A stretch of DNA of 64,000 bases from a virus, in the IMG/VR virus record IMGVR_UViG_3300048577_000559. One strand, written 5' to 3'. Numbering within the stretch: position 1 is the first letter of the stretch; every line of letters begins with the position of its first letter. Below, one piece after another: positions 1,982 through 44,023 of this stretch. A model generated the notes under the pieces. That model had not been told where the DNA came from and searched no databases. It saw only the letters and a program-made list of their open reading frames with translations. The position numbers and the translations under genes are program-made.

Positions 1982-2404
1982 ATGAACCCCACCGTTGTGA
2001 TCTGGATTCTGGCCGTTGCGGTTGCCGTGCTGGTTGGCCGTGAAGTCGGCAAGTGGCTCTTCGGCGAGAACGCCAAGCTGATGCAGAAGAAGCGCGCCGC
2101 CCAGAAATTGGCCGGTATCCTCCGCGACAACGGCCTGCGGCTGTTGCCTGCCGTGCTCGAAGACTTTGCCGTGGGCGACGTGCAGGACATGGTGGAGAAA
2201 ATCCACGATGTCTGCAAGATCGTCGATGCCGGCAGCGATGCCATCCTCAAGGAACTGGAGCAGACCTACGAGAATGTGCTGGCCAAGAAGCTCGCCACTC
2301 CCGAGGGTCTGGCCTACATCAAGGCGCGGATCGCCGAAGTCGAGGCTGCGCCGGCACCCGCTGCCGAGGCCCCGAAGTCCACTGCGGCCCCGGCCAAGTC
2401 GTAA
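1982..2404 (+). CDS. Membrane-anchored hypothetical protein, with a single N-terminal TM and an Ala/Pro-rich C-terminus.
   Basis: ORF with VVIWILAVAVAVLVG TM helix and plausible codon usage (GC3-rich). Confidence 0.4.
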   Translation: MNPTVVIWILAVAVAVLVGREVGKWLFGENAKLMQKKRAAQKLAGILRDNGLRLLPAVLEDFAVGDVQDMVEKIHDVCKIVDAGSDAILKELEQTYENVLAKKLATPEGLAYIKARIAEVEAAPAPAAEAPKSTAAPAKS

Positions 2405-2505
2405 CCGACTGATTCACCGCGCCCGGCTGCGGTCATACGCTCACCGGGCCGGTTTTCCGATGGCTCTCGACACCTTGTCGCGAGCCACCCGAGAACCGGA
2501 GATCA

Positions 2506-2850
2506 ATGATGAATCGTCGAAGTTTCCTGACCGCCACGGTGTTACTCGCGCTGATTGCAGGTTGCGAGGTGCCGCAGCAACAACAGCAAGGCGGTTGCCG
2601 CCGCCCCAAGGTGCTGGCCTTCACCGCTTCCTGGTGTGCCCCGTGTCAACGGGCAAAGCCCGCCCTGGTCCAGATTCAGGCCGCTGGCGTGGACGTGGAG
2701 ATCATCGACATCGACGCCCATCCCGATCTGGCGAAGAAATACGGTGTCACCAGCGTGCCGACTTTCATCGTCTACGTCTGCGGGAAAGCGCCGGTACGAA
2801 CCAACGACATCCTGGTGGTCGTCTCCTTGACTCGTTTTGGGTGCAAGTAA
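2506..2850 (+). CDS. Thioredoxin-like lipoprotein.
   Basis: Lipobox LALIAGC, followed by a WCAPC (CxxC) active-site motif and a thioredoxin-like SVPTF segment. Confidence 0.6.
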   Translation: MMNRRSFLTATVLLALIAGCEVPQQQQQGGCRRPKVLAFTASWCAPCQRAKPALVQIQAAGVDVEIIDIDAHPDLAKKYGVTSVPTFIVYVCGKAPVRTNDILVVVSLTRFGCK

Positions 2851-3056
2851 TGGCTCGCCGCCGCTGTCGCAACTGCCCGGACGAGCCGCGGCCAACACCG
2901 GAACCCAAGGTGACAAGGACGGTTGGCTCCCGTCGTCGCCGCGAACGAAACACGAGGTTGCACCGGGCCGAACGCCGAAGCAACCAGCGAGCCGCACTTG
3001 CCGCTGTCCCACGCGAACCTGAGATGCAACCTCAATTAAACCAATGATGCCGCTCC

Positions 3057-4730: not shown

Positions 4731-4743
4731 CGAGAGGTTCGTC

Positions 4744-6537
4744 ATGGCCGAAAGTCAAACGCTCAGCCTGATCGACAGCCGACATCCCGGCTACCTCTCC
4801 GGCATGACGGATTGGGAAAAGTGGCGGTGGACCTACGAGGGCGGCGACAGCTTTCGTGACTCCTACTTGGAGCGGTTTTCGACCCGCGAAGATCAGGCGG
4901 ACTTTGCCACCCGTAAGGCCGTCACGCCGGTGCCGGCGTTTGCCAAGGCGGCCATCAACGACATTCGCAACGCCATCTACCAGCGCCTGCGGGACGTGAT
5001 GCGCAAGGGCGGCAGCGAGGTCTACCAGGCCGCTGTCAATGGCAACAACCTGGGCGTGGACCATCGTGGCTCGACCATGAACGCCTTTCTGGGCGTGAAG
5101 GTCTTGACCGAGTTGCTGGTCATGGGACGGGTGGGCGTGTTCGTGGATCATCCGTTGATCCCGGCCGGCGCGACCTTGGCCAACGTCAGCCGGCCCGCGC
5201 CGTACCTCTACAAATACGACATCGAAGACATCCTTTCGTGGACCTGCTCGAAGCCTGATGCCCCGTCCGAGTTTCAGGCGATTCTGCTTCGTGACACGAC
5301 GATGCAGTACGACCAGTCCACGTTGCTGCCGACGCTTACGGTGCAGCGCTATCGCTACCTGCGGATCGACCCACACACGGGCAAGGTCCAGTTGCAGTTT
5401 TACAACATCAAGAAGGAGCCGGTCGATCAGTTCGGTCTGCCCGGCGGCGAAATCCAGTTGGAACTGGATCGCATCCCCTTCGTCATGTTGGACATCGGCG
5501 GCAGCTTGATAAAGGACGTGTGCCAGCAGCAGATCGCGCTGTTGAACCTCGGTTCCAGCGACGTGAACTACGCCTTGCGGTCCAACTTCCCCTTCTACAT
5601 CGAACAAAAGGACATGCGGGCGGTCGGTGCCCACCTGAAGCACGCCGCCACAGAAGACGGTACGGCCACCAGCGGAGGCCAGGGCGCGGCGGACGCGAGC
5701 ATCAAAGTCGGTGCAACGCATGGCCGCACCTATGACAAAGGGATGAATCCGCCAGCCTTCATCAATCCTTCGGCTGAGCCGCTGCGGGCAAGTCTGGAAT
5801 TGCAGGACCGGCTCAAGCGGGACATCCGCGAGTTGGTGAACCTGGCCGTGTCGAGCCTGGCGGTGCGGGTCTCGGCTGAGTCGAAAGCGATGGACAACCA
5901 GGGCCTCGAAGCGGGGTTGTCGTACATCGGGCTGCTCTTGGAAAGCGCTGAGCGGCAGATCGCCGAGTTTTGGGCCGCCTATGAACAGCGGAACGTCTCG
6001 AAGCGTGAAGTGGCGACGATCAAGTACCCGGAACGGTACAGCCTGAAGTCGGACGCCGACCGTATCAAGGAGGCGCAGGACTTGGAGAAGCTGATGGCAA
6101 AGGTGCCTGGCCGCAAGGTCAAGCGCGAACTGGCTAAGGGCATCGTCCAGACGCTCTTGGGCGGCAAGATCAGTATGGATGATCTCAATGCGATCAACCG
6201 TGAGATCGACACCGCCAATTACACCACGAGCGACCCGGAGACGATCATCCAGGCCGTGGCTGGCGGCCTCTGTGGCGAGAAGACCGGCTCGATCGCCTTG
6301 GGGTTCGACGACGACGAATACGAGAAGGCCCGCGAGGATCATGCGGCGCGCGTCGAGCGGATCGCCGAGTCCCAGGGCGTCACGAAGGGCGGCAGCGACC
6401 CGGCGGCGCGGGGTCTGAAAGACCTGTCCGCAAACCCGAACGCCGGGAGGGACGAGAAGGCGGCCAGCCGCAGTACCGATCTGCAAGACACCACGGCCCC
6501 GCGTGTGCGCGGCAAGGGCCGCTTCGCAGGAGAATGA
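4744..6537 (+). CDS. Portal protein.
   Basis: 597-aa ORF directly downstream of terminase with RBS GAGAGG. The size and position fit a portal. No specific motif recognised. Confidence 0.5.
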   Translation: MAESQTLSLIDSRHPGYLSGMTDWEKWRWTYEGGDSFRDSYLERFSTREDQADFATRKAVTPVPAFAKAAINDIRNAIYQRLRDVMRKGGSEVYQAAVNGNNLGVDHRGSTMNAFLGVKVLTELLVMGRVGVFVDHPLIPAGATLANVSRPAPYLYKYDIEDILSWTCSKPDAPSEFQAILLRDTTMQYDQSTLLPTLTVQRYRYLRIDPHTGKVQLQFYNIKKEPVDQFGLPGGEIQLELDRIPFVMLDIGGSLIKDVCQQQIALLNLGSSDVNYALRSNFPFYIEQKDMRAVGAHLKHAATEDGTATSGGQGAADASIKVGATHGRTYDKGMNPPAFINPSAEPLRASLELQDRLKRDIRELVNLAVSSLAVRVSAESKAMDNQGLEAGLSYIGLLLESAERQIAEFWAAYEQRNVSKREVATIKYPERYSLKSDADRIKEAQDLEKLMAKVPGRKVKRELAKGIVQTLLGGKISMDDLNAINREIDTANYTTSDPETIIQAVAGGLCGEKTGSIALGFDDDEYEKAREDHAARVERIAESQGVTKGGSDPAARGLKDLSANPNAGRDEKAASRSTDLQDTTAPRVRGKGRFAGE

Positions 6538-8634: not shown

Positions 8635-8737
8635 CCGTTCGGGGGTCGGCAAACCAAAGCTCTGCTCGGAGCCGGCGCGCGTCATGGTGACGAGGCGCGG
8701 CGCGCAGAGGTCACACGAGAAACTTCGGAGAGTTGCG

Positions 8738-10132
8738 ATGAACCGTTTGTACCTCAGCCGGCCGTTCACGGCTTGCTACGAAAACCAACTGGATGCCTTC
8801 ATCCCCGAGTTGTGGGCGGACGAGGGCCTGCGCATGTTGGAAGCCAATCTGGTGATGGCCAACATGGTCCACAGGGACTTCGAGGACCAGATCGCCAAGT
8901 TCGGCGATGTGGTCAACACCCGCCGCCCCGGCGAGTTCAAGATTCGCCGCAAGAAGGACGGCACCACCCTGGTGCAGCAGGACGCCGTGGCCACCAATGT
9001 GCAAGTGCCGTTGAATCAGTGGCTCTACTCGTCCTTCGTGATCCGCGACGGCGAGGGGAGCAAGTCCTTCAAGGAGTTGAGCCAAATCTATCTCCAGCCC
9101 GCGATGCAAACCATCGCCCTTGGCGTCGATCGCGCCCTGTTGGGCCAAGTCCACGCCTACCTCGGCGCACCGGCCGACCGCGTGGGCAAGCTGGGCGGGC
9201 TTTCGCCCAGCACGGCCAAGGACTACGTGCTGGATGCCCGCGAGCGGCTGAACATCAACAAGGCCCCCGTGGACGGCCGCAAGCTGGTCATGGCCCCGAC
9301 GAGCGAGACGGCCATGCTCAAGACCGACCTGTTCGTCAAGGCCAACGAGCGCGGCGACGGTGGCTCGGCACTGGAGAACGCGATTCTTGGCCGCATCCTC
9401 GGCTTCGACACCTACATGGACCAGAACGTCAACTGCGTCCTGTCCGGGTCGGACACCGACAGCGATCCGGTCACGGAGCCGTATGCGGCGGGCGCGACGG
9501 GCGATCTGGCGAGCGTCTTGGCTCCCACGGTCGGTGAGTTTGTGGTCGTGGCCGGCAACGACCAGCCCACTTGGGCAGTGACGGGTTCGGACGCGGATGC
9601 CATCGTCCTCAACGAACCCCTCAAGTACGCCACGCTGGACAACGCCGTGGCCACGCGCTGGGTGAAGTGCGTGACCGCTGCCGCTTACGCGGCCGGCTAC
9701 AGCGAGGGCATTGCCATGACCGTCACCGAGGGGAAGGCCCCGCAGGTCGGCCAGTTGCTCGCCTTCGGCGCGACCCCCGCCACGCGGCACACCTACACAG
9801 TGATCGAGTCCGAGGGGAGCGGCACCTCCTGTACCGTCTACCTGGATCGGCCGCTGGTGGCCGCCGTGGGCAACGGTGCCGATGCGTTCCCCGGCCCCTA
9901 TGGCGCGATGAATCTGGCCTTCCACCGGGACGCCCTGGCCCTCGTCACCCGCCCCTTGGCCCTGCCGGACACCCGCGCGGGTGTCATGGCCGGACACGCC
10001 GCCTACAACGGCATCACCATGCGGGTTTTGGCCCAGTACGACATCAACGCGGGCGGCCTGATCGTCAACTGCGACATCCTCGCGGGTGTGGCGGTGCTGA
10101 ACAGCGGCCTCCTGGTTCCCGTGCTCGGCTAA
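8738..10132 (+). CDS. Major capsid protein.
   Basis: 465-aa protein following the scaffold. A GC-rich hairpin lies downstream. Position and size are typical, with a P22-coat-like length. Confidence 0.6.
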   Translation: MNRLYLSRPFTACYENQLDAFIPELWADEGLRMLEANLVMANMVHRDFEDQIAKFGDVVNTRRPGEFKIRRKKDGTTLVQQDAVATNVQVPLNQWLYSSFVIRDGEGSKSFKELSQIYLQPAMQTIALGVDRALLGQVHAYLGAPADRVGKLGGLSPSTAKDYVLDARERLNINKAPVDGRKLVMAPTSETAMLKTDLFVKANERGDGGSALENAILGRILGFDTYMDQNVNCVLSGSDTDSDPVTEPYAAGATGDLASVLAPTVGEFVVVAGNDQPTWAVTGSDADAIVLNEPLKYATLDNAVATRWVKCVTAAAYAAGYSEGIAMTVTEGKAPQVGQLLAFGATPATRHTYTVIESEGSGTSCTVYLDRPLVAAVGNGADAFPGPYGAMNLAFHRDALALVTRPLALPDTRAGVMAGHAAYNGITMRVLAQYDINAGGLIVNCDILAGVAVLNSGLLVPVLG

Positions 10133-10494: not shown

Positions 10495-11007
10495 ATGCCC
10501 ATGACGTATCCTGCCAACCACGGATTGAATCAGCAGATTCGGCGCGTGCTCTATGCGCTGAAGCGTCAATACGGCGGCACGGTCACTATTTACCAGAATG
10601 GCTCGGTGACTACGGATACGAAGACCGGCGAAACGACCCGGACCAAGACGGCGACCCGGATTCAGCGGGCCGTCGTCCTGCCCGAGACCATTAGCCGCGA
10701 AGTGAAGCAGTCGATCTCGCTGATCTCCGCGAACAAGCAGATGGTCACGGGCGGCGGATACGAGGCGGGCAAACGGCTGTTCATCGTCGAGCGCCGCGAC
10801 TGCCCCAACCTGGTCTTGAAGCAAAGCGATTGGCTCGCCTACCACGGTCGCAAGTACGCCATCGAGAACTTCGAGGAGTACGAGTTCGATGCAGCCTACA
10901 TCATCCACGGCAAGGAACTGGTGGGCGAGTCGATTGGCGGCGGGGCGACGGTGATGGAAGCCGACAATTCCTTGACGCTTGCCGCTCAAGCCGAGGGGGA
11001 GGTGTAG
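10495..11007 (+). CDS. Head-tail joining or head-closure protein (hypothetical).
   Basis: ORF in the structural block between capsid and tail genes. Start at ATG 10495, or GTG 10492. Confidence 0.35.
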   Translation: MPMTYPANHGLNQQIRRVLYALKRQYGGTVTIYQNGSVTTDTKTGETTRTKTATRIQRAVVLPETISREVKQSISLISANKQMVTGGGYEAGKRLFIVERRDCPNLVLKQSDWLAYHGRKYAIENFEEYEFDAAYIIHGKELVGESIGGGATVMEADNSLTLAAQAEGEV

Positions 11008-11009
11008 TC

Positions 11010-11504
11010 ATGCCCGCCAATCCCAACTGGGCGCGCTGGGTGTTCGCCTCCGTAGCCACCTACTTGAAGCAAGTGGCCGAAGGCCAGCAGCTTCCCGTCC
11101 TGATCGAAGGCTTGGACGAGCGGACCACGGAGTTTATGAGCGCCACGGATCGGTGCGAGGTCCGCATCACGGGGCCGTTCACCAGGGAAGTGAGCCACGA
11201 CTGGTATCAGATCGAAGTCGTGGCGAACGTCCTGTTCGTGAGCCGCTACGAAGAGCAGAAGAACCAATACGCCATCATTCAGAAGACGGGCGTATTCCAG
11301 GAGGCAATGGACGCCAGCATCGCCGTCTACAAGTACGGAAGCGGGGCGGACGACGACGAGCATGTTCTTGTCGGCTGCCTCTCGCCGATCCAGGGCCGCA
11401 GTGACGCCATCCGCGTGATGCACTTCGGCCAGATCAATTCGACCGACCGCCTGAAACAGTCAATGGTAGACGCTCGCTACCGCATGGAGATTTCCACCAA
11501 CTAA
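11010..11504 (+). CDS. Neck or tail-completion protein (hypothetical).
   Basis: 164-aa ORF with a strong RBS GAGGGGGAGG upstream of ATG 11010. Confidence 0.35.
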   Translation: MPANPNWARWVFASVATYLKQVAEGQQLPVLIEGLDERTTEFMSATDRCEVRITGPFTREVSHDWYQIEVVANVLFVSRYEEQKNQYAIIQKTGVFQEAMDASIAVYKYGSGADDDEHVLVGCLSPIQGRSDAIRVMHFGQINSTDRLKQSMVDARYRMEISTN

Positions 11505-11523
11505 GTAAACGGAGAAACCGAAC

Positions 11524-12270
11524 ATGGCACGCATCGAATTGCGAGACTGCGATGTCATTTTGCAGGACGGCCTCGCGGGCACGGCGGCGGTCAACGAATC
11601 CGTCACCCCGCCCGAAGCGACCGACACCGACTTTGACATCGACACGATTGTCCTGAACACGGCCGACACCGATAAGGTGCCCGTGGGGGCGCGTTTCAAG
11701 ATTGTGGGCGAGACGACCCCCGTGTACCACACCGTCACGGCCCGCACCCCGGCCGACGCCGGCCCGACGACCAACATCGAGTTCGCGCCGGCCCTCGGCG
11801 CGGGCACGTATGCGGACGGCGCGGTGGTGACGTTCTATCCCCAGAATCTCGAAATCAAGATCGGGGAAGGAAACATCACCTACACCGAGCACAACGAGTA
11901 CGAGTACCTCAAGGACCGGGGCGACTTGGACACGGTGAAGGAAGGCGACGAAGTGCCGATGGACGTGAAGCTGGAGGCCGTCTTCGAGCACATCACCCAG
12001 GGCACGAGCGAGCCGGTCAGCCCGATGGACGCCCTGAAGGGCATCGGCGGGGCGGACGAGTGGGTGAGCGCGTCGAGCGACCTGTGCGAGCCGTACTGCG
12101 TGGACGTGGTGGTTCTGCACACGCCGCCCTGTGGCACGGCCCAGCTTGAGCGCGTGACCTTCCCCGACTTCCGCTCGGAGCAACGGGAGATCAACTACAA
12201 GGAGTCCACGATCTCGATTACGGGCAAGTGCAAGGCCACGGAACCCATCGTCGCGCGTGAGACGGCGTAG
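11524..12270 (+). CDS. Putative major tail (tube) protein.
   Basis: 248-aa ORF followed by a rho-independent terminator, directly upstream of the chaperone/tape-measure genes. Confidence 0.4.
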   Translation: MARIELRDCDVILQDGLAGTAAVNESVTPPEATDTDFDIDTIVLNTADTDKVPVGARFKIVGETTPVYHTVTARTPADAGPTTNIEFAPALGAGTYADGAVVTFYPQNLEIKIGEGNITYTEHNEYEYLKDRGDLDTVKEGDEVPMDVKLEAVFEHITQGTSEPVSPMDALKGIGGADEWVSASSDLCEPYCVDVVVLHTPPCGTAQLERVTFPDFRSEQREINYKESTISITGKCKATEPIVARETA

Positions 12271-12283
12271 TAGTGACAATTCC

Positions 12284-12308
12284 CCGGCCCTCTGAGGCCG
12301 GTTTCTCT
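12284..12308 (+). terminator. Rho-independent terminator after the putative major tail gene.
   Basis: CCGGCC-ctctga-GGCCGG stem-loop followed by TTTCTCT. Confidence 0.45.
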
Positions 12309-12335
12309 GGCCTCTTTCTCAAGAAGACCAGATAT

Positions 12336-12363
12336 GCGGTGCCGGCAGCGGTGCCGGCACCGC
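12336..12363. promoter_or_regulatory. Direct repeat plus a 16-bp perfect palindrome GCGGTGCCGGCACCGC upstream of the chaperone gene.
   Basis: gcggtgccggca repeated twice. The second copy forms the perfect palindrome 12348-12363. Confidence 0.3.
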
Positions 12364-12395
12364 AACTCTCTCATTCCTTTTAGCGAGGGAACAAC

Positions 12396-12923
12396 ATGAA
12401 GATTGCCGGTATCGACCCCAAATCGCTTTCCAACGAGGTGCTCCTCGTGCTGCCGCGCGGCGAGAGCGAGATTATCTTCCGCGCCAAGGGCTTGCCCGAC
12501 ATGGCGGAGTTCGAGGCCGTGTGCCCGAACCCCAAGCCGCCGGGCAAGTTCACCAAGGACGGATGGATTCCCAACCTCACCGATCCCACCTATCAGCAAG
12601 TGCTCAGTGAGTGGGCCAAGAAGCGGCTGGGCTACATGGTCGTCAAGTCGTTGGCCCCGTCCGAAATCGAGTGGGATACCGTCAAGGAGAGCGATCCCCG
12701 CACCTGGGCCAAGTGGGAAGAAGACTTGAAGAGCGCCGGCCTGACCCAGGTGGAGTGCAATCGCGTGCTGGCCCTGGTCCTGGAGGCGAACGCCCTGGAC
12801 GACGCCAAGCTGCAACGGGCGCGCGAGGTTTTTCTGCGTGGTCAGGGACCGATGCCCGAAGAGTTCTCTTCGCCCCTTATCGCACCGCCGAGTTCGCCGT
12901 CTGGCGAGCCTGCGAACGGCTAG
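12396..12923 (+). CDS. Tail assembly chaperone (gpG-like).
   Basis: 175-aa ORF between the major tail and tape measure genes. RBS GAGGGA. Confidence 0.45.
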   Translation: MKIAGIDPKSLSNEVLLVLPRGESEIIFRAKGLPDMAEFEAVCPNPKPPGKFTKDGWIPNLTDPTYQQVLSEWAKKRLGYMVVKSLAPSEIEWDTVKESDPRTWAKWEEDLKSAGLTQVECNRVLALVLEANALDDAKLQRAREVFLRGQGPMPEEFSSPLIAPPSSPSGEPANG

Positions 12924-13099
12924 GCATCCGGCCGCCGGGCGTCAAGCCGTCTTGGGACGAGTGCGGCGTTGAGACCCAGGCTTTGATCGTCGCCTTTGAC
13001 CAACTGCGAGGTTACGACGAAGCCGAGCGGGAGGCTCAACTGGCCGGGGCAAGGATGCCCTTCGCGGCGGCCCGGCCGGCGAAAGGGGAAGGTTCCTGA
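12396..13099 (+). CDS. Putative -1 frameshift-extended chaperone (gpGT-like fusion product).
   Basis: The overlapping -1 frame stays open to 13099 and encodes a protein-like C-terminal extension with no start codon of its own. A GGTTTTTC T-run at 12828-12834 is a candidate slip site. Confidence 0.35.
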
Positions 13100-13101
13100 C
13101 C

Positions 13102-13620
13102 ATGAAGTTCACGGCCCAGTTCTCCATTCCGCGCATCGACGTGGCGGCCTACCGTAATGCCCTCGATGGGCACATGAAGCACGCGATTGCCCAGGCGCTC
13201 ACGGAATGGCTGGAAGCGGTCTTGGGGGAGATTCCGGTGTGGAGCGGGGCATCGCGGGCGACCTTCGTGAAGCTCGCCCAGCAGATCGGCTACGGTCTGC
13301 CCGTCGCGCCGGCGGCGACCGCAACCGGCGAGCGGATCGACCGGACTTGGATGGGGACGGCACAGGGCGACGGCAAGCTGACGGCGGACAAGGACACCGG
13401 CGAGTACACGTTCAGCTACACGACGACGCTGCCGTGGTTGATCTGGAACGAGTACCACAACGCCAACGTCGAGCCGGACCCGACCCTCTTTCATCGTCTG
13501 ATTGAACCCGGTCCCTACAACTTCCAAGTCGTGGGTGCCAACGCCTTCTTACGGTTTGCGGAGAACGTGGACCTTCCCAAGGTCAAGCCTCATGTGCGTG
13601 TTGTGCGCGTGAAGTCTTAG
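13102..13620 (+). CDS. Hypothetical tail-associated protein.
   Basis: 172-aa ORF with RBS GGGGAAGG, between the chaperone and the tape measure. Confidence 0.4.
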   Translation: MKFTAQFSIPRIDVAAYRNALDGHMKHAIAQALTEWLEAVLGEIPVWSGASRATFVKLAQQIGYGLPVAPAATATGERIDRTWMGTAQGDGKLTADKDTGEYTFSYTTTLPWLIWNEYHNANVEPDPTLFHRLIEPGPYNFQVVGANAFLRFAENVDLPKVKPHVRVVRVKS

Positions 13621-13632
13621 CAAGGTGTTTCA

Positions 13633-16600
13633 ATGGCTGACGAAACCATTGTCAATAAACTCGGTTTCAGCGTCGAGGATGCTCTCAAGCAGCTTCAGCG
13701 ATTGGACTCCGCGCTGCAATCCTCGGGCACGGCCTTCCAGACGTTCGGCGAGCGGATGAACGCTTGGAACAGCCAGGCGGAGGGCGCGCTGAACCGGATG
13801 AAGGACATGGCCTCGGCCGCCTCGCGGCTGGCCAATTCGTTGGCGAAGATGGGCAACGGGCCGGCAACGCCGGCTGCCCCGACCGCTGCGCCCACCTCGA
13901 AGTTCTGGCTGCCGCCCGGCGTGGCAGAGGAGGTCCAGAAGGCCAACCAGACGATGGATCAGCTTGGCAACACGGCGGCCGAGGCTGGAAATAAGATGCG
14001 GGAGGCGGGAGCAAAGGGCAAGAATGCCGGCTCGGATGCCGGCGGCGCGGCGAAAGAAGCCGCTGAGAAGACCAAGGCGTGGACCGTCACTTGGGAGACC
14101 CTGACGCGGGTGGTAATGACCCAGGCCATCGTCCGCGTCTTGAGCCAGATTCGGAATCTGCTCCGTGAATCGGTGGACGAGGCGCTGAAGTTCTCCACGA
14201 AAATCTCGGAAATCCAGACCATTGCCCCGAGGATCGACCAGAGCTTCCAGGGGTTGAGCAAGGAAGTCGCCGACATCTCGCGGCAGTTCAACTTCCCGCT
14301 GCCCGACGTGGCCGAGGCGGTGTATCAAACGCTGTCCAACCAGTTTACCTCGGCGCAGCAACGTGCGGACATTATGACGGCCTCCGCCAAGCTGGCTAAG
14401 GTCGGCGTCATGGACTTGAATGAGGCCGTGCTCCTGATTACGGGCACACTCAACGGCTACGGCATGGCATCCAACCAGGCCGAGACGGTGGCCGCCAAGT
14501 TCTTTAAGACCATCGAGTTGGGCCGCACCCGTGGTGCCGAGTTGACGCCGGTGATTGGCCGCCTCGTGCCGATTGCCAGCGAGTTGGGCGTCAACCTGGA
14601 TGAAGTCAATTCCTCGATGGTCGCCTTGACCATCGGTTCGATGCGCGTCCCCGAGGCGGCGACCAGCTTCCGGTCGGCGATGGCAGCCCTTATCAAGCCC
14701 TCCGAAGACTTGAAGAAGGAGTTGCGCGCCCTGGGCTACGAGACGGGCCAGCAGATGATTCATGCCCTGGGCCTCCAAGGGGCGTTCCTAGCCCTGCGGG
14801 AGAGCGCGAACGAAGACGTGGCGGCCACCGCCAAGATGTTCCGCAACATCCGCGCCTTGAACGCCGAATTGCGATTGACCGGCTCGGGCGCGGAACAAGC
14901 GGCCGAGGCCATGAAGAAAATGACCGATGGCACGCTCACGGACAGCTTCAACGAGGTCTTCAAGACGTTCACCTCCACCGACGCCCAGCAGTACATGGCG
15001 GAGTTGAACAAGTTCAAGGTCTCTTTGGCCACGGAGGTGGGACCGGAACTGGTCAAGTTCCTTAGCACCCTCTTGAAGACGGCGGGCGGGGCGGAAGGAT
15101 TGGCCGCCGCGCTAAAAGGCATTGCGATGACGGCAAGCCAGTTGGCCGAGCCGCTGGCGATTGCCGGCGGGGCGCTGGCGGCGTTCTCGCTCCGCGCCAA
15201 GCTGGCGGGATTCACCGGCCTCGGAGGCGTCCTTTTCAACAACGTCGTTGCGCCGCTGAGCATGGCGGTGTGGACTACCGAATTCCTCGATCAGCGCATG
15301 GCGTCGATGCTTGACAATGCCAACGCGAACTTCCGTGCGAAGGTCGAGGAGACGGTACTGGCGCAGAGGAAGGCCGCCCAAGAGCGGCTGGACGCCGAGA
15401 TGAAGGTCTACGACGAAGCCGGCCGCCGCCTGGAACAGTACACGGCAGAGGTCCGCAAGGCGTACAACGCCCAGGTGGACCAGGCGCGGAAGACCAATGA
15501 GCAGTTGGTTGTCTCGTCGCGGACCACGATGCAGGCGATGATCTCGGCCCGCGAAAAGGTCGTGCAGCAGTTCCGCGCGGCCGCCCAGGACGCCAACAAG
15601 GCGGCCGAAGACTCCGTGAAGCGTCAGGCGGACTCGCAAGCCAAGCTGGACGACCTGCTCTTCAAGCGACGACTCGAAGAGCGGCAGAAGTACGACAGCT
15701 ACTACAAGAAGCCCGAAGTCACGTCGGATATGTACGGCCGGCGTGCGCTCGAACTAGCGCAGCAAGCTGCGGGCCTCTTGGCCAAGGCCGAGACCCCGGA
15801 CCAGGAGCGGACGGCCCAGGCGATCTTCCAGCGGGCGACGGCCTACGCCCAGGAAGCCGAGCAGATCGCCAAGGGGACGGAGAACGAGTGGCTGCGGAAA
15901 GACGCCGCGAACACCGTGGAGTCGATTATTCGCAAGGAGATCGACGCGGAAAAGGAACTTCAGCGCAACAGCGATTCCCGCGCCTCGGCGGCGGCCCAAG
16001 CGGCGGCCAAAGAGCAAGAGCGCGTGGACCGGATGAAGGTCTTGATGAAGGGTATCCTCACGGACCTGGACCTGTTCGATAAGCGTGGTCCGGTGGACCC
16101 CAAGAAGACGGCCGCCATGTCGGAAGACTTGAAGCAGAAGATGGCTTCCTTCAAGAAGGAATGGATGGACGGCACGGCTGATCTCAGCCTGGACGAGATG
16201 CTGAAGTTCGACGCCCTCAGCCAACGGGTCAAGACGGCCTTGGAGGGTGGCGTCTCGGAGGCAGAGGTCCAGAAGCTCTTGGCTGCGCCGAATGCGATTG
16301 ACGACTTGCGCAGCCAGATCGAGGCGGGCCTGAAGCCGGTGGATGTCTCCGTCCTGCTGCCCGTCGCCTCCCCCGACCTTGCCAAGAGACTGTTGGCGGA
16401 AATGCCTTTGCCCGACAAGGAGGCGTACCTCGCGCAGCAGAACGCTGCCTTCCAGAAGCAGACGGAACTGGTCAAGAAGCTCACGACCGAGCAGATCGCG
16501 CTTACGGAGGCCACGACTCGGCAGAAGGCGGCCGTGGGTGCCCTGGGCGCGAACAACGCAATCTACCAGGAAGGCATGGAGGAGACTTCGACCTTCTTGA

Positions 16601-17445
16601 TGCAAGCGGCGGCCAAGGCCAAAGGCGCGATCCTCGGCGGCGGGGACATCCAGAAGGAGACGAAGGCCCTGGCGGAGTTGGTCGGGCAGTTCCGGCAGTT
16701 GTCCGAGACTGGCGGCAAAGGTTTTGGCCTGAAAGAGTTTGAGGAATTGCAGAAGAAGGCCACCGCCGCGATGGCCATGCCCACTGTGACGGGATGGGAC
16801 CAAACCTTCATCACGAACCAGATGGCCAACTTAAAGTTCCTGGCCGAGCAGACGGAGGCGATGAAGAGGTTGCAGACGCCGCAGGGTCAGACCCGCGACG
16901 TGGAGGCGGAGTTGCTGAAAGCTCGGCAAGAGGCCGACCGCCTCAAGGAATTGATCGACAAGTTGAAGCCCCAGGCGGCGACCGAGATGGGTGAAGGCGC
17001 GAAGGCGGCACAAACGTCACTAAGCGCAATCCCGAGCATGGCGGGCCTGGTCGGCGACATCCAATCGGCAGCCACGGCTATGTGGGACTTGGCTGCCGCC
17101 TCGTGGAGCGTGCAAGCCCCGCCATCGGCCCTGACCGCTGCCAAGGGCCGGATCGCGTGGAACTTCTTGTCCCTTGGCGGCCCGGCCCAGGGCACAGACG
17201 TGATTCCGGCGATGCTCTCGCCGGGCGAGGTGGTGATTAACGCCGCCTCGGCGCGGCGGTTCGCCGCACAACTGACCGCCATCAATGCCGGCGTGCAGCC
17301 GGTCTACCGCAGCGAAGGCGGCAGCGTCACCAACATCGGTGACATCAACGTGAACGTAACCGGCGGCGGATCGAGCCGCCAAACGGCTCGGGAAATCGCC
17401 GCCGAGATTCGACGCGAATTGCGGCGCGGCACGGCGACCCTGTAA
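13633..17445 (+). CDS. Tail tape measure protein.
   Basis: 1270-aa Ala/Gln/Glu/Lys-rich, largely alpha-helical protein in the canonical position. Confidence 0.75.
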   Translation: MADETIVNKLGFSVEDALKQLQRLDSALQSSGTAFQTFGERMNAWNSQAEGALNRMKDMASAASRLANSLAKMGNGPATPAAPTAAPTSKFWLPPGVAEEVQKANQTMDQLGNTAAEAGNKMREAGAKGKNAGSDAGGAAKEAAEKTKAWTVTWETLTRVVMTQAIVRVLSQIRNLLRESVDEALKFSTKISEIQTIAPRIDQSFQGLSKEVADISRQFNFPLPDVAEAVYQTLSNQFTSAQQRADIMTASAKLAKVGVMDLNEAVLLITGTLNGYGMASNQAETVAAKFFKTIELGRTRGAELTPVIGRLVPIASELGVNLDEVNSSMVALTIGSMRVPEAATSFRSAMAALIKPSEDLKKELRALGYETGQQMIHALGLQGAFLALRESANEDVAATAKMFRNIRALNAELRLTGSGAEQAAEAMKKMTDGTLTDSFNEVFKTFTSTDAQQYMAELNKFKVSLATEVGPELVKFLSTLLKTAGGAEGLAAALKGIAMTASQLAEPLAIAGGALAAFSLRAKLAGFTGLGGVLFNNVVAPLSMAVWTTEFLDQRMASMLDNANANFRAKVEETVLAQRKAAQERLDAEMKVYDEAGRRLEQYTAEVRKAYNAQVDQARKTNEQLVVSSRTTMQAMISAREKVVQQFRAAAQDANKAAEDSVKRQADSQAKLDDLLFKRRLEERQKYDSYYKKPEVTSDMYGRRALELAQQAAGLLAKAETPDQERTAQAIFQRATAYAQEAEQIAKGTENEWLRKDAANTVESIIRKEIDAEKELQRNSDSRASAAAQAAAKEQERVDRMKVLMKGILTDLDLFDKRGPVDPKKTAAMSEDLKQKMASFKKEWMDGTADLSLDEMLKFDALSQRVKTALEGGVSEAEVQKLLAAPNAIDDLRSQIEAGLKPVDVSVLLPVASPDLAKRLLAEMPLPDKEAYLAQQNAAFQKQTELVKKLTTEQIALTEATTRQKAAVGALGANNAIYQEGMEETSTFLMQAAAKAKGAILGGGDIQKETKALAELVGQFRQLSETGGKGFGLKEFEELQKKATAAMAMPTVTGWDQTFITNQMANLKFLAEQTEAMKRLQTPQGQTRDVEAELLKARQEADRLKELIDKLKPQAATEMGEGAKAAQTSLSAIPSMAGLVGDIQSAATAMWDLAAASWSVQAPPSALTAAKGRIAWNFLSLGGPAQGTDVIPAMLSPGEVVINAASARRFAAQLTAINAGVQPVYRSEGGSVTNIGDINVNVTGGGSSRQTAREIAAEIRRELRRGTATL

Positions 17446-17474
17446 CCCCTTTTGTGAAGAAGAGAGGAAAACCC

Positions 17475-18083
17475 ATGAGCATCAGTCGAATGAGTGTTGG
17501 CCAGAACGCGGGTTGCAGCATGGTCCGCACCCGCAAGAGCGAAGATCAATTGCAGCCGCGCGGCCGGTTCGTGGTCGAGCATTTCCGCAAGGGAGAAAAG
17601 ATCGGCCACTACGAGTTCCCCAACGGGATCGCCAACGAGGGCAAGAACAAGCTCTTGGACGTGATGTTCCACGGCGTCTCGGCCATCACAACCTGGTGGC
17701 TGGGCCTGATCGACAACAGCGGCTACAGCGCGCTGGCTGCTGGGGACACCTACGCCAACATCGACCAGGCCGGCAACGGCTGGGACGAGTTCACCGACTA
17801 CACGGACCCGGCCAACGCCGGCAGCGCCAGTACCCGGCCCGAGTGGACGGAAGGCGCGGCCTCCGGCCAGGCGATCACCAACGGCGGCCCCGTGGTTTTC
17901 GACATCACCGACAGCGGGACGGTCAAGGGTCTGTTCCTAGTGGGCGGGGCTGCCAACGCCCAGAACAAGGGCGACTATCAAGCGGCCGGGGCCGTGCTCT
18001 GGGCCACCGCCCTGTTTGGCACCGGCGACGTGCCGGTCAACGCCGAGGACCAGTTGAAGGTGACGTACACCGTCAGCGCGTAA
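17475..18083 (+). CDS. Distal tail protein (hypothetical).
   Basis: 203-aa ORF with RBS AGAGGAAA, immediately after the tape measure. Confidence 0.4.
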   Translation: MSISRMSVGQNAGCSMVRTRKSEDQLQPRGRFVVEHFRKGEKIGHYEFPNGIANEGKNKLLDVMFHGVSAITTWWLGLIDNSGYSALAAGDTYANIDQAGNGWDEFTDYTDPANAGSASTRPEWTEGAASGQAITNGGPVVFDITDSGTVKGLFLVGGAANAQNKGDYQAAGAVLWATALFGTGDVPVNAEDQLKVTYTVSA

Positions 18084-18170
18084 CGGGACTCCCTCGCCAC
18101 AGGTCGGGCGGGGTCTTCGCTAAGAAGCCCCGCTCGGCCTTTCTTCGCCCTTTCTCTGTGAGGAATCACG

Positions 18171-19139
18171 ATGGCCTACGAACGATTCACAAACGGCGGC
18201 CTCTCTTCGCTGGACGCCGCCATCGACAACGATGATCTCGCCTTGACGGTGAAGTCGGCTGTCGGATTCCCCACCGGCGGCAACTTCCGCATCATCATCG
18301 ACAACGAGATCATGCTGGTCACGGACGTGCAAGGCAAGACCTTCACCGTCACGCGGGCGCAAGAGGGGACCAGCGCCGCCAGCCACGATGCCGACGCCGC
18401 TGTCTTTCATGTCCTGACCGCTGGTGCCTTGGCGCAGCGAGACATCGAGCAGTTCGCCAGCGGCGCGATCGCCAACCGCGATGCGGCTGGGCAGGCAGGA
18501 CGGCTCTATCTGCCGACCGAGGGCCTTGTCGGTCAAGACAACGGCATGGCCTGGGACATGATGCCTTACTGGCGCATGACGCCTCCAGCCAGCGGCGACT
18601 TCACCTGGATCAACCAGGGCAGTGCCACGGTAGCCGACACGAAGGGCATGATGGTCCTCTCGACCCCGAGTGTGGCGTCGGGCGAGAACATCCGGTGCCT
18701 CGTCAAGTCCGCGCCGGCGACTCCCTATGAGATTACCGTCGCCATGCTGGCCCAGAGTCCGGGCTACACCACGACGAATGTTTCGCAGTTCGGCATCTGC
18801 TGGCGCGAGAGCGGTTCGGGCAAGCTGCTCACCTACGGCTTTGGCACGCAGAACTATCCGCAGGGCTTCTTCTACACTCAATGGGCGAACCCCACGACAC
18901 CCACCAACCAGTTCGTCTACACCGCGCCGTGGAGTTGGCCGTTCTGGATTCGTTTCTCTGACGACGGCACGAACCGGATGGTGAAAATCTCGGCGGACGG
19001 GATTACGTTCCAGCCCGTCCAAGCTACGCAGGGCCGCACCGTGTATCTCACGGCCGATCAGGTCGGGGTGTTCGCCAATAGCTGGAAGAACACCCTCGCG
19101 GCGCGCGTCATTTCGTTCTTGCATTGGAGGGAAGCATAA
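18171..19139 (+). CDS. Tail fibre or receptor-binding-like protein, paralog 1.
   Basis: Shares a conserved N-terminal domain (GGNFRI.ID.EI..VT..QEGT..HD..A.V.HVLT.GAL, GRL.LPT.G) and the C-terminal motif FLHW with the next two genes. Confidence 0.5.
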   Translation: MAYERFTNGGLSSLDAAIDNDDLALTVKSAVGFPTGGNFRIIIDNEIMLVTDVQGKTFTVTRAQEGTSAASHDADAAVFHVLTAGALAQRDIEQFASGAIANRDAAGQAGRLYLPTEGLVGQDNGMAWDMMPYWRMTPPASGDFTWINQGSATVADTKGMMVLSTPSVASGENIRCLVKSAPATPYEITVAMLAQSPGYTTTNVSQFGICWRESGSGKLLTYGFGTQNYPQGFFYTQWANPTTPTNQFVYTAPWSWPFWIRFSDDGTNRMVKISADGITFQPVQATQGRTVYLTADQVGVFANSWKNTLAARVISFLHWREA

Positions 19140-20128
19140 TGGCGGAGCAATTCAAGAACCTCGCCAGCACCACGCTCAACGGAGCCATCAACGATACCGT
19201 TGAAACGATTACGGTGGTCAGTGCGATGGGCTTCACGGGCGGTAACTTCCGTATCCTGATCGACAGCGAGATTGTGAAGGTCACGGCCGTGAGCGGCCTA
19301 GACCTGACGGTCGTGCGAGGCCAGGAGGGGACCAATCCTACGGCCCACGACAACGCCGCCGCTGTTCGCCACGTCTTGACGGTCGGGGCACTGGACGCCC
19401 ACGACCAGGACGACTTGGCGGCCTACGACGCCTGCGCCAGCAAGCCGGCGGCCGGCGTGCCGGGGCGCATCTTCCTGCCGACCGATGGCATCTTCTTCGA
19501 GCGCGACAATGGCTCGATCTGGGAGAGGTTTGGCCCTTTGTGGCCCATGACTCCGCCGCAAGCCTCCGACTTCCCGACTTGGGTGAACCAGGGGACCGCG
19601 ACTATTGCGGACAACAAGGGGGCGGTCTGGCTCTACGCCCCTTATACCAGCAATACCCAAGTCCGTATGCGGGTGAAGGATTATCCCACCCCACCGTTCA
19701 CCGTAGAGGCGGCGTTCATTCCCTGTGTGTTTCCTAATACCGGCAGCGGAACGGGAGGCATCGGCATCCGGGACTCGTCCAGCGGTAAGCTCCAAGTTTA
19801 CGGGGTGACGAGTGCCTACATGGAGATTTGCGGCTACCGACTTGACAGTCCTACGGCGAGTTTCAACGGCATGACGGGCTGGCCAAATTCGGGTTCCCTT
19901 CACCTGCCCGAGTCGAACCTGATCTGGGTCAAGTACGAAGACGACAACACGAACCGCAAGATTTCGGTCTCCGTGGACGGCTATACCTGGACGCAGATGG
20001 TCAGCGTCGTCCGAACCGACCACCTGACTCCCAATCAGATCGGGATATGGACGAACGGCTATCCCGGCGGCGGTGCCAGCGGCTACGTGGACACGGGCGT
20101 CACCTTTCTTCACTGGAAGCAATACTAA
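19139..20128 (+). CDS. Tail fibre or receptor-binding-like protein, paralog 2.
   Basis: Paralogous to 18171-19139 and 20128-21117, with the same N-terminal domain and C-terminal HWKQY. Start at ATG 19139 after GGAGGGA. Confidence 0.5.
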   Translation: MAEQFKNLASTTLNGAINDTVETITVVSAMGFTGGNFRILIDSEIVKVTAVSGLDLTVVRGQEGTNPTAHDNAAAVRHVLTVGALDAHDQDDLAAYDACASKPAAGVPGRIFLPTDGIFFERDNGSIWERFGPLWPMTPPQASDFPTWVNQGTATIADNKGAVWLYAPYTSNTQVRMRVKDYPTPPFTVEAAFIPCVFPNTGSGTGGIGIRDSSSGKLQVYGVTSAYMEICGYRLDSPTASFNGMTGWPNSGSLHLPESNLIWVKYEDDNTNRKISVSVDGYTWTQMVSVVRTDHLTPNQIGIWTNGYPGGGASGYVDTGVTFLHWKQY

Positions 20129-21117
20129 TGGAAACCTTCGCCAATCAGGCCGTTACCACGCTGTCGGCCGCCATTACCAGCGTGACCGCCACGAGTTGCA
20201 CGGTCATTGATGCCACGGCGTTCCCGGACACCGGGAACTTTCGCATCAAGATCGACAGTGAAATCCTCATTGTCACTAGCGTTGCAGGCAATACCTTCAT
20301 CATCACGCGCGGGACCGAGGGCACTACGGCGGCCACGCACGCCAGCGGCGCGAGCGTCATTCACCTCTTGACCAAAGGCAGCCTGGACGCGCGGGTCGCC
20401 AACCGCTTCATCTCCGACATCTACGACAACAAGCCTGCGGCTGGCGTCAAAGGACGACTCTTCCTGCCCACGGACGGGCTGTTCCTGGAGTACGACGACG
20501 GGGCGGCTTGGCACAAGTACGGGCCGTACCGGCGGCTCAAAGCGCCACCCCAGACCGGCTGGTCGTGGGTCAACCAGGGCAACGCCACGGTGACGTACAC
20601 CGGCAGCGCGTTGGTGCTCGAAGACCCCGATCTTGATACCACCGCTCCGCAGATTCGTTTGCTCGTCCGGCCAGTAGGCGTGGTCAACGGGGTCACAGCG
20701 GCCTTTCTGTGGAATGGGCTAGCAAACGATGTCCCCTGCATGGGCGTCTGTGCCAGGCAGGTGGGCGGGGACGCATCCTATGACGGGCACTTCTGGACCT
20801 TCGGCACCCGGCCGTCAAGTGGCGCTGGCAATCAGATGGTTTTTCACGAGCGGTATTACACTTCTCCGACCGTGCTTCAATCGACCCCGACAGAGGATGG
20901 GAAAGCCTATTACTCGCAACGGCTCTTCTGGGTTCGGTACGAATGGACCGGGTACAACAAGCGTTTCTATCATTCGGCCGATGGCGTGAACTGGATCAGG
21001 GTGGACGACGAGGGAATGACTTCTTATGCCGGACCCAACCAGTTGGGCATCTTCATCGACCCGACGAACAATGTCCAGAAGATTTCCATGACCTTGGTTC
21101 ACTGGGAAGAGAGCTAA
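20128..21117 (+). CDS. Tail fibre or receptor-binding-like protein, paralog 3.
   Basis: Same N-terminal domain (GNFRIKIDSEILIVTSV..TRGTEGTT..H) and C-terminal LVHWEES. Confidence 0.5.
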   Translation: METFANQAVTTLSAAITSVTATSCTVIDATAFPDTGNFRIKIDSEILIVTSVAGNTFIITRGTEGTTAATHASGASVIHLLTKGSLDARVANRFISDIYDNKPAAGVKGRLFLPTDGLFLEYDDGAAWHKYGPYRRLKAPPQTGWSWVNQGNATVTYTGSALVLEDPDLDTTAPQIRLLVRPVGVVNGVTAAFLWNGLANDVPCMGVCARQVGGDASYDGHFWTFGTRPSSGAGNQMVFHERYYTSPTVLQSTPTEDGKAYYSQRLFWVRYEWTGYNKRFYHSADGVNWIRVDDEGMTSYAGPNQLGIFIDPTNNVQKISMTLVHWEES

Positions 21118-21120
21118 GCG

Positions 21121-23625
21121 ATGGCGCAGACCGGCAAGCTGGGCACCGTCGATTCCCAACTGGCGAATCTGCAACCGGCATTTGCTGGTGCGGACCCGTC
21201 GCCGCCCTCGGTCACGACGGAGAGCGGCCGGCTCGGCGAGCAGTTGGGAGACATGGTTCTCGCCCTCGGCGGGGTGATTGGCGCAAGCGTCATTCACCTC
21301 TCGGCCGAGAGCGTGCTTGCCGCTGCGCAGACGACGGCTTGTGAGCCGGAGTATGTGGCTCACGAGTCCCCCATCTGGGCCTTGGGCGGTCAAGACTCCC
21401 GGCTGGGCGACACCCAACTGGCTTTTTCCGGCGCAGACGTGCCGCTGCCGGCGATTACTACCCAAAGCGGCCGGCTCGGCGGGCAACTGGGCGATCTGGT
21501 CCCCGGCCTCGGCGGGCTGCTTAGTCCTGGCGTCATTCACCTGTCGGCCGAGAGCGTGCTGGCGATCGCGCAGACGGCGGACCCCGCGCCGACGTTCGCA
21601 CCTCACCTGTCTCCGGCCTGGGCGTGGGGCGGGCGAGACGCTCAGCTTGGCGTTGTGCAGCCGGCGTTTGCTGGTGCCGAGGAGGCGCGGCCGGAGACCG
21701 GCGACCGCACGGGTCAACTTGGCACGCTCAATTCGCTGCTGGGCAACATGCGGCCTGCCCTCGGCGAGCAAGAGGGTGGCGGCGGGGCCAACATCGTCTA
21801 TGCCAGTGCCCAGAGTGACTTGTCGCTGACGGCCGAGGCGGCGGTGGCCGGCGTCGTGCGGGCCTGTGCCGCCTCTAGCGCGCTTGTCCTGTCGGATGTC
21901 GCCGGGCGCAACGATCTTTTGAGCGGGGCTGCCGAATCGGCGGTCAGCCTGAACACGGTGGCGGAGTTCTCGGTCGCGCGGGCGGCGGCGGCTGAGAGCG
22001 CGTTGGCGCTGCTGGATTCCGCCGGGCGCAACAATTTGCTCAGCGGAGAGGCCGAATCCGCGATCAGCTTGGACATGGCAGCGGACTTCACCGCCGCGCG
22101 AGCGGTGGCAGCCGAGAGCACGCTGGCGCTCGTGGATGCGGCAGCTAACATCGGGGGCGAACTTATTGAGGCGGCGGCAGAGTCCACGCTTGTCTTGGAC
22201 GTGGCGGCCGACTTCACAGTTGCACGAGCGGCGACGGCCGAGAGCACGCTGGCCCTGGTGGATGCGGCGACCCGCAATAACCTGCTCAGCGGCAGCGCTG
22301 AGTCCGCGATCAGCCTGGGGACCACGGCGGACTTCACCGTCGCACGGGCGGTAGCAGCCGAGAGCGTGCTGGCGATCTCCGTCGAAGCGGCGCGCGTCTT
22401 GCCGGCTGTTATCGACGTGGCGGCCGAGTCCGCGATCAGCCTGACCGTGGCGGCCGGGCGCAACAACATCGTGACCGCTGCTGCCACGAGCGTGCTTGAC
22501 CAGACAACTGCGGCGACGTGCGTTCACGTCGTCCCCACGCCGGTCAGCGCTGAATCGACGATCAGCCCGGACACGGCGGCGGCCTGTTCGGTCGCGCGGC
22601 CGGCAGGGGCCTGGGACGAACTATGGAACCTGTGGCACGAGGCATCCGTCGTCGTCGTGCGGAAGGTGGCTGCCGAAAGCCCCCTGGCATTAGCGCAGAC
22701 GGAACTGACGGCCCGGCCGTGGTACTTGTCGGCCGAGTCCCCGCTCCAGGCCGTCACTGAGGAGTACGATCCCGAGCTTGACGCGATGGTCGAGCGGATC
22801 GAGGGCCTGCAAGATGCCGCGAGGGTTGCCCGTCCGCTGCCGCTGGCGGTCCAGCAGTCGATCTCCCTCGGGCAATCGGCCTCGGTCGTCAAGGTCAAGC
22901 CCAACGCCATCAACGTCGCGGCCGAAAGCGTCTTGGAACTGCTGGGCGAAGTCCGGCCCAACAGGACCGGGGACGTAGGCCATTGGTTGGCGTTCACGCA
23001 GACTGCCACGATTGATAAGTGCAAGCCGGCCAGGTCGGCGTTGGAGTTGGCGGCCGAAGCGGCGGCTGTTTGGACCGGCCCGCGCGACGCGGACTCGGCG
23101 CTCGATCTGCGCCAGTCGGCGACGTACTATCTGGTTTCGGCCGGCGTCCTTCAGCGGTATCACCCGTTTGTCGGAGCAGGGGCACCGAATGCGCCAACGC
23201 CCCCGCCGCCGGTCCTTGAGGGTCCGCGTCCTGGCGTCACGGTCGCGTTCCAGTTGGTCTATCCGGCGACGGGCAGCGTCACCGATTCGGTGACGCTGCG
23301 AACGCCCAATTTCGGCAACAAGGATCGGCTCGGCTTCAACCGCGTCTTGCGGGAGACTCGCGGCGGCACGCTGATCGTCTTCGCCGATCCGATCTGGCCG
23401 AAGATTCAGACCCTCGTTCTGAACTTCTCCGGCCTCACTCGCGACCAGGCCCAAGCATTGCTCACCTTCCTGGACGCCCATCTGGGCGAGGAAGTAGGCG
23501 TGTACGACTGGGAGCATCGCTATTGGACTGGCGTGATTACCACGCCAACCGACCCTATGGTCCAGGACGGCCGGGCCAGCTTCTCGGCCAGCTTCGAGTT
23601 CGAGGGTGAGTTGGTTCCGGCATAA
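21121..23625 (+). CDS. Large tail or fibre-associated protein with internal tandem repeats.
   Basis: 834 aa. It has two copies of a unit of about 80 aa (SGRLG.QLGD.V..LGG....SVIHLSAESVLA.AQT) and at least five copies of a unit of about 40 aa (AESxLALxDxAxRNNLLSGxAESAISLxxxADFTVARAVA), also visible as roughly 120-bp DNA repeats. Confidence 0.5.
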   Translation: MAQTGKLGTVDSQLANLQPAFAGADPSPPSVTTESGRLGEQLGDMVLALGGVIGASVIHLSAESVLAAAQTTACEPEYVAHESPIWALGGQDSRLGDTQLAFSGADVPLPAITTQSGRLGGQLGDLVPGLGGLLSPGVIHLSAESVLAIAQTADPAPTFAPHLSPAWAWGGRDAQLGVVQPAFAGAEEARPETGDRTGQLGTLNSLLGNMRPALGEQEGGGGANIVYASAQSDLSLTAEAAVAGVVRACAASSALVLSDVAGRNDLLSGAAESAVSLNTVAEFSVARAAAAESALALLDSAGRNNLLSGEAESAISLDMAADFTAARAVAAESTLALVDAAANIGGELIEAAAESTLVLDVAADFTVARAATAESTLALVDAATRNNLLSGSAESAISLGTTADFTVARAVAAESVLAISVEAARVLPAVIDVAAESAISLTVAAGRNNIVTAAATSVLDQTTAATCVHVVPTPVSAESTISPDTAAACSVARPAGAWDELWNLWHEASVVVVRKVAAESPLALAQTELTARPWYLSAESPLQAVTEEYDPELDAMVERIEGLQDAARVARPLPLAVQQSISLGQSASVVKVKPNAINVAAESVLELLGEVRPNRTGDVGHWLAFTQTATIDKCKPARSALELAAEAAAVWTGPRDADSALDLRQSATYYLVSAGVLQRYHPFVGAGAPNAPTPPPPVLEGPRPGVTVAFQLVYPATGSVTDSVTLRTPNFGNKDRLGFNRVLRETRGGTLIVFADPIWPKIQTLVLNFSGLTRDQAQALLTFLDAHLGEEVGVYDWEHRYWTGVITTPTDPMVQDGRASFSASFEFEGELVPA

Positions 23626-27807: not shown

Positions 27808-27845
27808 GACAAGTGCCCAGGTGGATAACCACCTGGGCACTTGTC
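27808..27845 (+). terminator. Perfect 17-bp stem-loop (GACAAGTGCCCAGGTGG-ataa-CCACCTGGGCACTTGTC), likely a terminator or regulatory hairpin.
   Basis: Exact inverted repeat read directly from the sequence, followed by TCATTTCTT. Confidence 0.5.
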
Positions 27846-43950: not shown

Positions 43951-44023
43951 TGTGGCGTAGTTCAGTTGGCAGAGCGGGTGCCTGTTGAGCACCGGGTCGC
44001 TGGTTCGAGTCCAGCCGCTACAG
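43951..44023 (+). tRNA. tRNA-Asn (anticodon GTT).
   Basis: Manual cloverleaf: acceptor TGTGGCG/CGCTACA, D-stem GTTC/GAGC, anticodon stem GGTGC/GCACC with loop CTGTTGA, T-arm GCTGG-TTCGAGT-CCAGC, discriminator G. Confidence 0.75.

Follow-up and report, generated by a model that had tools for sequence, protein, structure and literature searches.

Why should a phage carry three similar genes in its tail module, the second and third of which each begin on the last letter of the preceding stop codon? This question is raised by a 64,000-nucleotide stretch of viral DNA, IMG/VR virus record IMGVR_UViG_3300048577_000559 (the whole stretch analysed is here called the window), which encodes on its + strand genes A (18171-19139, 322 amino acids (aa)), B (19139-20128, 329 aa) and C (20128-21117, 329 aa). 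Our analysis suggests that A, B and C are probably three short tail appendages, each composed of an anchor, a neck and a lectin head, which together would form the glycan-binding host-recognition cassette of a siphophage-type phage or prophage of Planctomycetota. The position of the genes supports this reading, as they lie just 3' of the tape-measure gene in the tail module, in the order p209, A, B, C and then the genes for proteins of 834, 146, 967 and 272 aa (p834, p146, p967 and p272). An original prediction, made from the letters of the window, had described three open reading frames (ORFs) of these coordinates and lengths with 1-nt overlaps, in agreement with the ORF list and with both gene junctions, A/B (19137-19141) and B/C (20126-20130), which read TAATG, such that the TAA stop and the next ATG overlap by 1 nt. 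B and C both start with ATG, and the sequence GGAGGG is present 8 nt 5' of the ATG of gene B.

Judged by alignment, the three proteins are paralogs over their entire length, far above chance. Pairwise BLASTP aligned them at full length, with 40% identity between A and B (E 8e-64), 35% between A and C (E 1e-51) and 33% between B and C (E 9e-48), so that the motifs they share are significant. The N-terminal motifs originally listed (GNFRI.ID.EI..VT.V.G, R..EGT, H..T.G.L and GR...LPT.G) are invariant or nearly so in both three-way and 57-sequence alignments, and the N-terminal domain they mark is indeed common to all three proteins, but the paralogy is full-length and is not confined to this domain. 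Paralog-to-paralog identity amounts to 49-55% for the N-domain, 38-50% for the neck and 24-32% for the C-domain; as such, the description of the central regions as diverged is correct in that identity is lower there, but these regions are still homologous and have one common fold. Markers common to A, B and C continue up to the C-terminus (W-x-N-Q-G at A residues 146-150, R175, R212, G277 and W319). Of the predicted (F/L)HW ending, HW is invariant, but the residue preceding it is L in A and B and V in C.

Each protein has the same three-part layout, which in gene A consists of an N-terminal fibre-anchor domain (aa 1-88, 18171-18434), a neck formed by a helix and an 'AAG..GRLYLPTEG' hairpin (aa 89-140, 18435-18590) and a concanavalin A (ConA)-like lectin domain (aa 141-322, 18591-19136). 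An AlphaFold2 monomer model of A, built from the 57-sequence alignment (predicted local distance difference test score, pLDDT, 81), has a beta-rich N-domain (to ~85), a short helix (84-95), a low-confidence linker (88-118) and a beta-sandwich (~120-322). The pLDDT of neck residues 88-118 is below 55, as expected where order comes only upon oligomerisation. The N-domain shares the fold of the GP4-type tail-fibre anchor. Residues ~1-90 match the N-termini of the PHROGs 'tail fiber protein' families 8469, 38058, 11439 and 9851 (E 1e-7 to 1e-3), and hmmsearch of the A/B/C profile against the PDB matched query residues 2-106 to residues 2-116 of 8jov_1, the 'putative tail fiber protein' in the portal-tail complex of GP4 (E 6.8e-5). 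The anchor domain of this protein, the 439-aa fibre III of a Ralstonia phage (PDB 8jov), is homologous to the A/B/C N-domain; GP4 is however a podophage whose fibre has a long shaft, whereas in A, B and C the lectin head directly follows a short neck. The C-domain is a beta-sandwich jelly-roll of the ConA-like superfamily, and its best matches are non-catalytic (3mep/3o12, GH43 C-terminal domains, CBM66 and L-type lectins). A sugar-binding-type domain in the distal part fits the receptor-binding role originally proposed for the three proteins. Its fold and its phage analogues, the Douge BppU module and the TM4 gp23 receptor-binding domain, make it likely that the C-domains bind carbohydrate. 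Residues ~97-316 of A also match phrog_19068, a family of unknown function (E 3e-21). This family, represented by the gp38-type proteins of cluster J mycobacteriophages (Thibault gp38, 267 aa), corresponds to the neck hairpin and lectin domain, with 28-31% identity by tblastn. Thibault gp38 is encoded among minor tail protein genes; gp38-type proteins, unlike A, B and C, are single copy, are without the GP4-type N-domain and are annotated as hypothetical.

If A, B and C recognise the host, their distal domains should be compared between phages that are otherwise alike. Relative L019 and the window are near-identical in the tape-measure protein (96%), p209 (97%), p146 (100%), p967 (100%) and p272 (99.6%), whereas A, B and C are 76, 66 and 66% identical. 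As A, B and C diverge while these five flanking tail proteins do not, the cassette varies independently of the backbone. The divergence is concentrated in the heads: identity in the N- and C-domains respectively is 98% and 66% in A, 70% and 59% in B, and 85% and 50% in C. Measured in sliding 300-nt windows, most of the tape-measure gene is 95-100% identical to L019 in nucleotide sequence. This value drops to 51-80% between 18.5 and 21.2 kb, stands at 84-86% at 21.2-22.1 kb (the first kilobase of p834) and is back at 96-100% past 22.4 kb. The divergent or exchanged block thus spans ~18450-22300 (51-86% identity inside, 95-100% in most flanking windows), and has its left edge within gene A, 3' of the N-domain, and its right edge within p834. 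Across 19 relatives, the identities of p209, p834, p146 and the tape-measure protein track that of p967 (Spearman 0.81-0.93), while the lectin domains are 39-70% identical (rho 0.11-0.52 against p967) and remain within about this range whatever the backbone distance. The converse case is seen in L006, where A and B are 93-94% identical on a more divergent backbone (tape-measure protein 79%). The three C-domains also vary in concert (rho 0.56-0.74, Mantel p 0.001). Divergence of the heads that is decoupled from the backbone, together with their co-variation, shows them behaving as a linked, exchangeable specificity block whose breakpoint falls where anchor meets head in gene A, and the distal domains are the most variable segment of the structural module. 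This supports the earlier suggestion of a host-range or specificity cassette, which proves to be the variable part of the tail module. Tandem cassettes of several receptor-binding proteins or tailspikes in general combine a conserved N-terminal anchor with a variable C-terminal head. A, B and C resemble these in having a conserved attachment module, a variable distal module and a breakpoint at the domain boundary (98% against 66% in A), but differ in being a fixed, ordered set of one uncharacterised family that is duplicated whole and sometimes partly fused.

Two observations nevertheless weigh against a role in host recognition. Enzymes (PL7 lyases, GH16) share the ConA-like fold, as do domains with a purely structural role, and in comparison with the distant relatives L001 and L003, A, B and C (56-70% identity) are more conserved than the capsid (51-58%) or p967 (41-42%). 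Such conservation is unusual for receptor-binding proteins, and would imply a bounded allele pool or strong structural constraint. An early inference from L001 and L003, that A, B and C rank with the most conserved structural proteins and are therefore unlikely receptor-binding proteins, was reversed by the near-identical backbone of L019. The C-domains are unlikely to be enzymes ('depolymerases' of the polysaccharide lyase or glycosidase type) instead of lectins, given the non-catalytic nature of their best matches. Scanning A, B and C with regular expressions revealed no GH16 ExDxxE motif and neither the QIH nor the YFKAG motif of PL7, and only N148, R212, D264 and R289 among polar C-domain residues are conserved family-wide; a lectin is therefore the more likely assignment. 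Very unlikely, in our estimation, is that A, B and C are structural baseplate accessories that stabilise the tail tip with no or an incidental receptor role, as in the ring that BppU forms round the distal tail protein of mycobacteriophage Douge. The layout of Douge BppU (gp23, 311 aa, PDB 8zdo) resembles that of A, B and C at 322-329 aa, with an N-domain of ~100 aa (1-100), a flexible linker and a ~200-aa carbohydrate-binding module (116-311), and in distant comparisons A, B and C are highly conserved beside other structural proteins, which would suit such a role. No sequence similarity was detected between Douge BppU and A, B or C, and Douge BppU is the product of one gene, present in 12 copies as a hexamer of homodimers. 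The lectin heads are, unlike a purely structural part, the most divergent segment between near-identical phages, and even the carbohydrate-binding module of Douge BppU binds mycobacterial glycans experimentally (PMC13033339).

The comparison of copy number proposed with the original prediction shows that it varies from 1 to 6 units, and does so differently in close and distant relatives. Complete arrays in close relatives (n=30) are A-B-C in 25 cases and A-B-C-A'-B'-C' in the other 5, with no other number; the order is always A-B-C, and gene junctions are almost always 1-nt or 4-nt overlaps. Metagenomes contain many relatives, and the top 120 matches separate cleanly as three orthogroups (63 A, 12 B and 45 C). 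In the six-copy arrays, identity is 66-70% between A and A', 60-67% between B and B' and 67-69% between C and C', compared with 29-43% for all other pairs, and the second sets form one clade; the doubling was therefore a single duplication or acquisition that has been retained since. Distant relatives that share the tail module have 1, 2, 4 or 5 units (L039, L059/L060/L064, L061, L070), which excludes a universal rule of multiples of three. Three distant lineages with three units have fused two of them, as [1][2-3] in L089/L090 and as [1-2][3] in both L091 and L092, with the C-terminal HW of one unit ~8-10 residues from the N-terminus of the next. A unit of a distant array usually has its closest relative within that array, which points to repeated independent tandem duplication; for the same reason, a position-by-position correspondence of such units to A, B and C was rejected.

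How the three proteins assemble is less readily decided. The original prediction regarded them as alternative receptor-binding proteins, for which the shared anchor and divergent lectin heads argue, but as close relatives keep A-B-C fixed or double the whole set, A, B and C may instead be parts of one device. An obligate 1:1:1 heterotrimeric lectin fibre, in which each chain contributes one anchor and a different head and several copies surround the tail tip, is possible, though we consider it doubtful. It is favoured by the restriction of close relatives to three or six copies in constant order with doubling of the set as a whole, by stop/start overlaps that favour equal dosage, by co-inheritance of the heads, and by the three distant lineages that keep three units while fusing two. 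The neck, moreover, is 66-88% identical within an orthogroup and 38-50% between orthogroups. The neck of B is acidic and that of C basic. There is also a precedent in gp35, gp36 and gp37 of mycobacteriophage Mysterious, three similarly folded proteins that form a heterotrimer, six of which are present per baseplate (PMC13252515). Like A, B and C, these are beta-sandwich proteins whose numbers suggest neighbouring genes, but they are ~205 aa, have a beta-hairpin arm and have no GP4-type anchor. The array resembles a heterotrimeric system at the level of gene order, copies of three or six, coupling and fusions. However, the same tail module is found with 1, 2, 4 or 5 units in arrays that arose by independent duplications, so that single units must be able to assemble alone and the family as a whole does not require this stoichiometry; the doubling to six traces back to a single inherited event, and tandem genes would be co-inherited in any case. 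The homologous fibre III of GP4 is encoded by a single gene, where here there are three paralogs, and is present as 18 identical chains in 8jov. The fibre is a homotrimer, and its 18 chains reportedly form six homotrimers on the nozzle.

A somewhat better case, although still one we would place short of even, can be made for A, B and C as separate homo-oligomers, probably homotrimers, at equivalent or neighbouring sites, or in a variant of this arrangement as a head-to-tail beaded side fibre. As separate homo-oligomers they would give a virion three kinds of independent lectin fibre. Repeated independent duplications giving 1 to 6 units among phages with the same tail module are consistent with this, as are the identical chains of the GP4 homolog. 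The N-domain also occurs as a generic repeated bead (9-33 copies) in giant proteins, and the short distance between HW and the next N-terminus in the fusions is compatible with a chain. By itself, however, this arrangement provides no explanation for the absence of 1, 2, 4 and 5 copies in close relatives, and leaves the strict order and tight coupling unexplained.

In either assembly, a host-recognition cassette of three lectin-headed appendages would be likely to operate as follows. A, B and C would be translated in a coupled manner from the late tail operon, in roughly equal amounts, and would be incorporated into the virion by docking of their conserved N-domains on the tail tip, possibly through the adjoining adaptor-like protein p209. 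The three different lectin heads would then bind host surface glycans in a first, reversible step of adsorption. The heads would set specificity, and would diversify and be swapped as one block among near-identical phages, an exchange that is directly evident in the comparisons above.

The small beta-rich protein p209 (209 aa, 17454-18083, + strand) is encoded directly 5' of the array in near and many distant relatives. It resembles the Bxb1 'tail wing arm' gp31, the GP4 'fiber I and fiber-tail-adaptor' chain 8jou_a, and baseplate proteins, and the Bxb1 wing arm belongs to a dispensable peripheral appendage (PMC12646305). Its likeness to this arm and to the GP4 fibre-adaptor chain makes p209 a plausible candidate for an adaptor or 'arm' joining the units to the tail tip, although these likenesses are only suggestive. 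In some relatives (L035 7540-9860, L033 8788-9860) there are two p209 paralogs and/or an extra ORF of ~350 aa between p209 and gene A; this ORF had no match to the family hidden Markov model (HMM) in L035 or L033.

That the anchor is conserved, that heads are variable and that receptor-binding protein genes can be arranged in tandem was already known. What is new is a family outside Pfam and NCBIfam cover, the host phylum, a three-paralog set that is inherited, duplicated and partly fused as a unit, and recurrent independent tandem expansion. Very little work exists on phages of Planctomycetota, for whose host recognition this cassette is the clearest candidate. Because tandem multiplication of the unit has happened independently on many occasions, the array also offers a natural system for studying how phages assemble multivalent or heteromeric readers of glycans. 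If A, B and C do form a heterotrimer, the receptor-binding unit would be a three-gene product, with three different heads on one stalk, and exchange, duplication and partial fusion would act on it as a whole. A very recent observation made in one mycobacteriophage would then become more general, and there would be a rule by which to interpret tandem 'minor tail' paralogs of metagenomic phages. If they are three independent short fibres, the array would be an ordinary, if neat, cassette of multiple receptor-binding proteins.

The assignment to Planctomycetota comes from prophages with the A-B-C triplet in two Thermoguttaceae chromosomes (OY762224.2, OY780964.2) and in Pirellulales/'Planctomycetaceae' genome bins. 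Relatives retain the synteny of the tape-measure gene, p209, the units and p834-like, p146-like and p967-like genes. Megablast of 17400-21200 against 50,697 GenBank phages gave no match, nor did tblastn with p967, and by these searches no sequenced phage isolate is close to that of the window. Pfam and NCBIfam had no match for A, B, C, p209, p834, p146 or p967, and NCBIfam also had none for p272. The unit of GP4-type anchor and ConA-like head is nevertheless a very large family, without a model in either database: a profile search of clusters at 50% identity found 28,106 with E <= 1e-3 and 2,343 with E <= 1e-30. Giant metagenomic proteins contain 9-33 tandem N-domains of ~70 aa (for example P0121, 4059 aa; P0122, 7472 aa; and P0188, 805 aa), and the N-domain is therefore also a generic bead-like module besides being an N-terminal anchor. 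An uncultured 595-kb phage (L004, LR756511.1) encodes two adjacent full-length units at 10934-15082 and a C-domain-only protein two genes past this pair, with four matching places in the whole record. Three tandem genes in L062 (5012-7476) encode only neck and lectin (HMM positions 95-324), without the GP4-type N-domain, and long proteins (972-1385 aa) in L040, L058 and L071 likewise end in the C-domain.

On the 3' side of C, p834 (834 aa, 21121-23625, + strand) is a repeat-rich protein, the first ~1 kb of whose gene lies within the low-identity block relative to L019. It has three N-terminal repeats of ~85 aa (one to three in relatives) followed by Ala-rich repeats of ~40 aa with the motif 'AAES.L.L', seen in its gene as a tandem repeat of 120-nt period (21900-22137). 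One p834-like protein resembles p146 in its C-terminal part (L092 ORF 10696-12144 against p146, 28% identity, E 8e-6). The size and repeat number of p834 do not track the number of A/B/C sets, as the protein is 790-829 aa in six-copy phages and has one to three repeats in three-copy phages. PDB sequence searches with p967, p834 and a profile of p146 gave empty results or chance matches.

The array is set in a siphophage-type structural module on the + strand, with a gpA-type large terminase (3057-4730), a portal (4645-6537), a P22-like coat protein (8684-10132) and the 1270-aa tape-measure protein (13633-17445). The tail operon is closed by a strong terminator-like hairpin with a 17-bp stem (27808-27845, + strand), and no comparable hairpin is present within or between A, B and C. 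A 248-aa protein (11524-12270), of which there is one copy in the window, may be the tail tube protein; L001 encodes two adjoining paralogs of it (347 and 247 aa) at 2211-4023. No integrase was found among the window ORFs scanned, though close relatives are integrated in Thermoguttaceae chromosomes. The region from 28 to 64 kb is devoted to replication and nucleotide metabolism, and encodes a DUF5906 primase-like protein, ParB, a family A DNA polymerase, a ligase, NT5C, DeoC and two methylases, and contains a tRNA-Asn gene (43951-44025). A DNA methylase (N6_N4_Mtase, 35923-37617) contains a LAGLIDADG endonuclease domain at aa 66-166, which may be an inserted homing endonuclease or intein.

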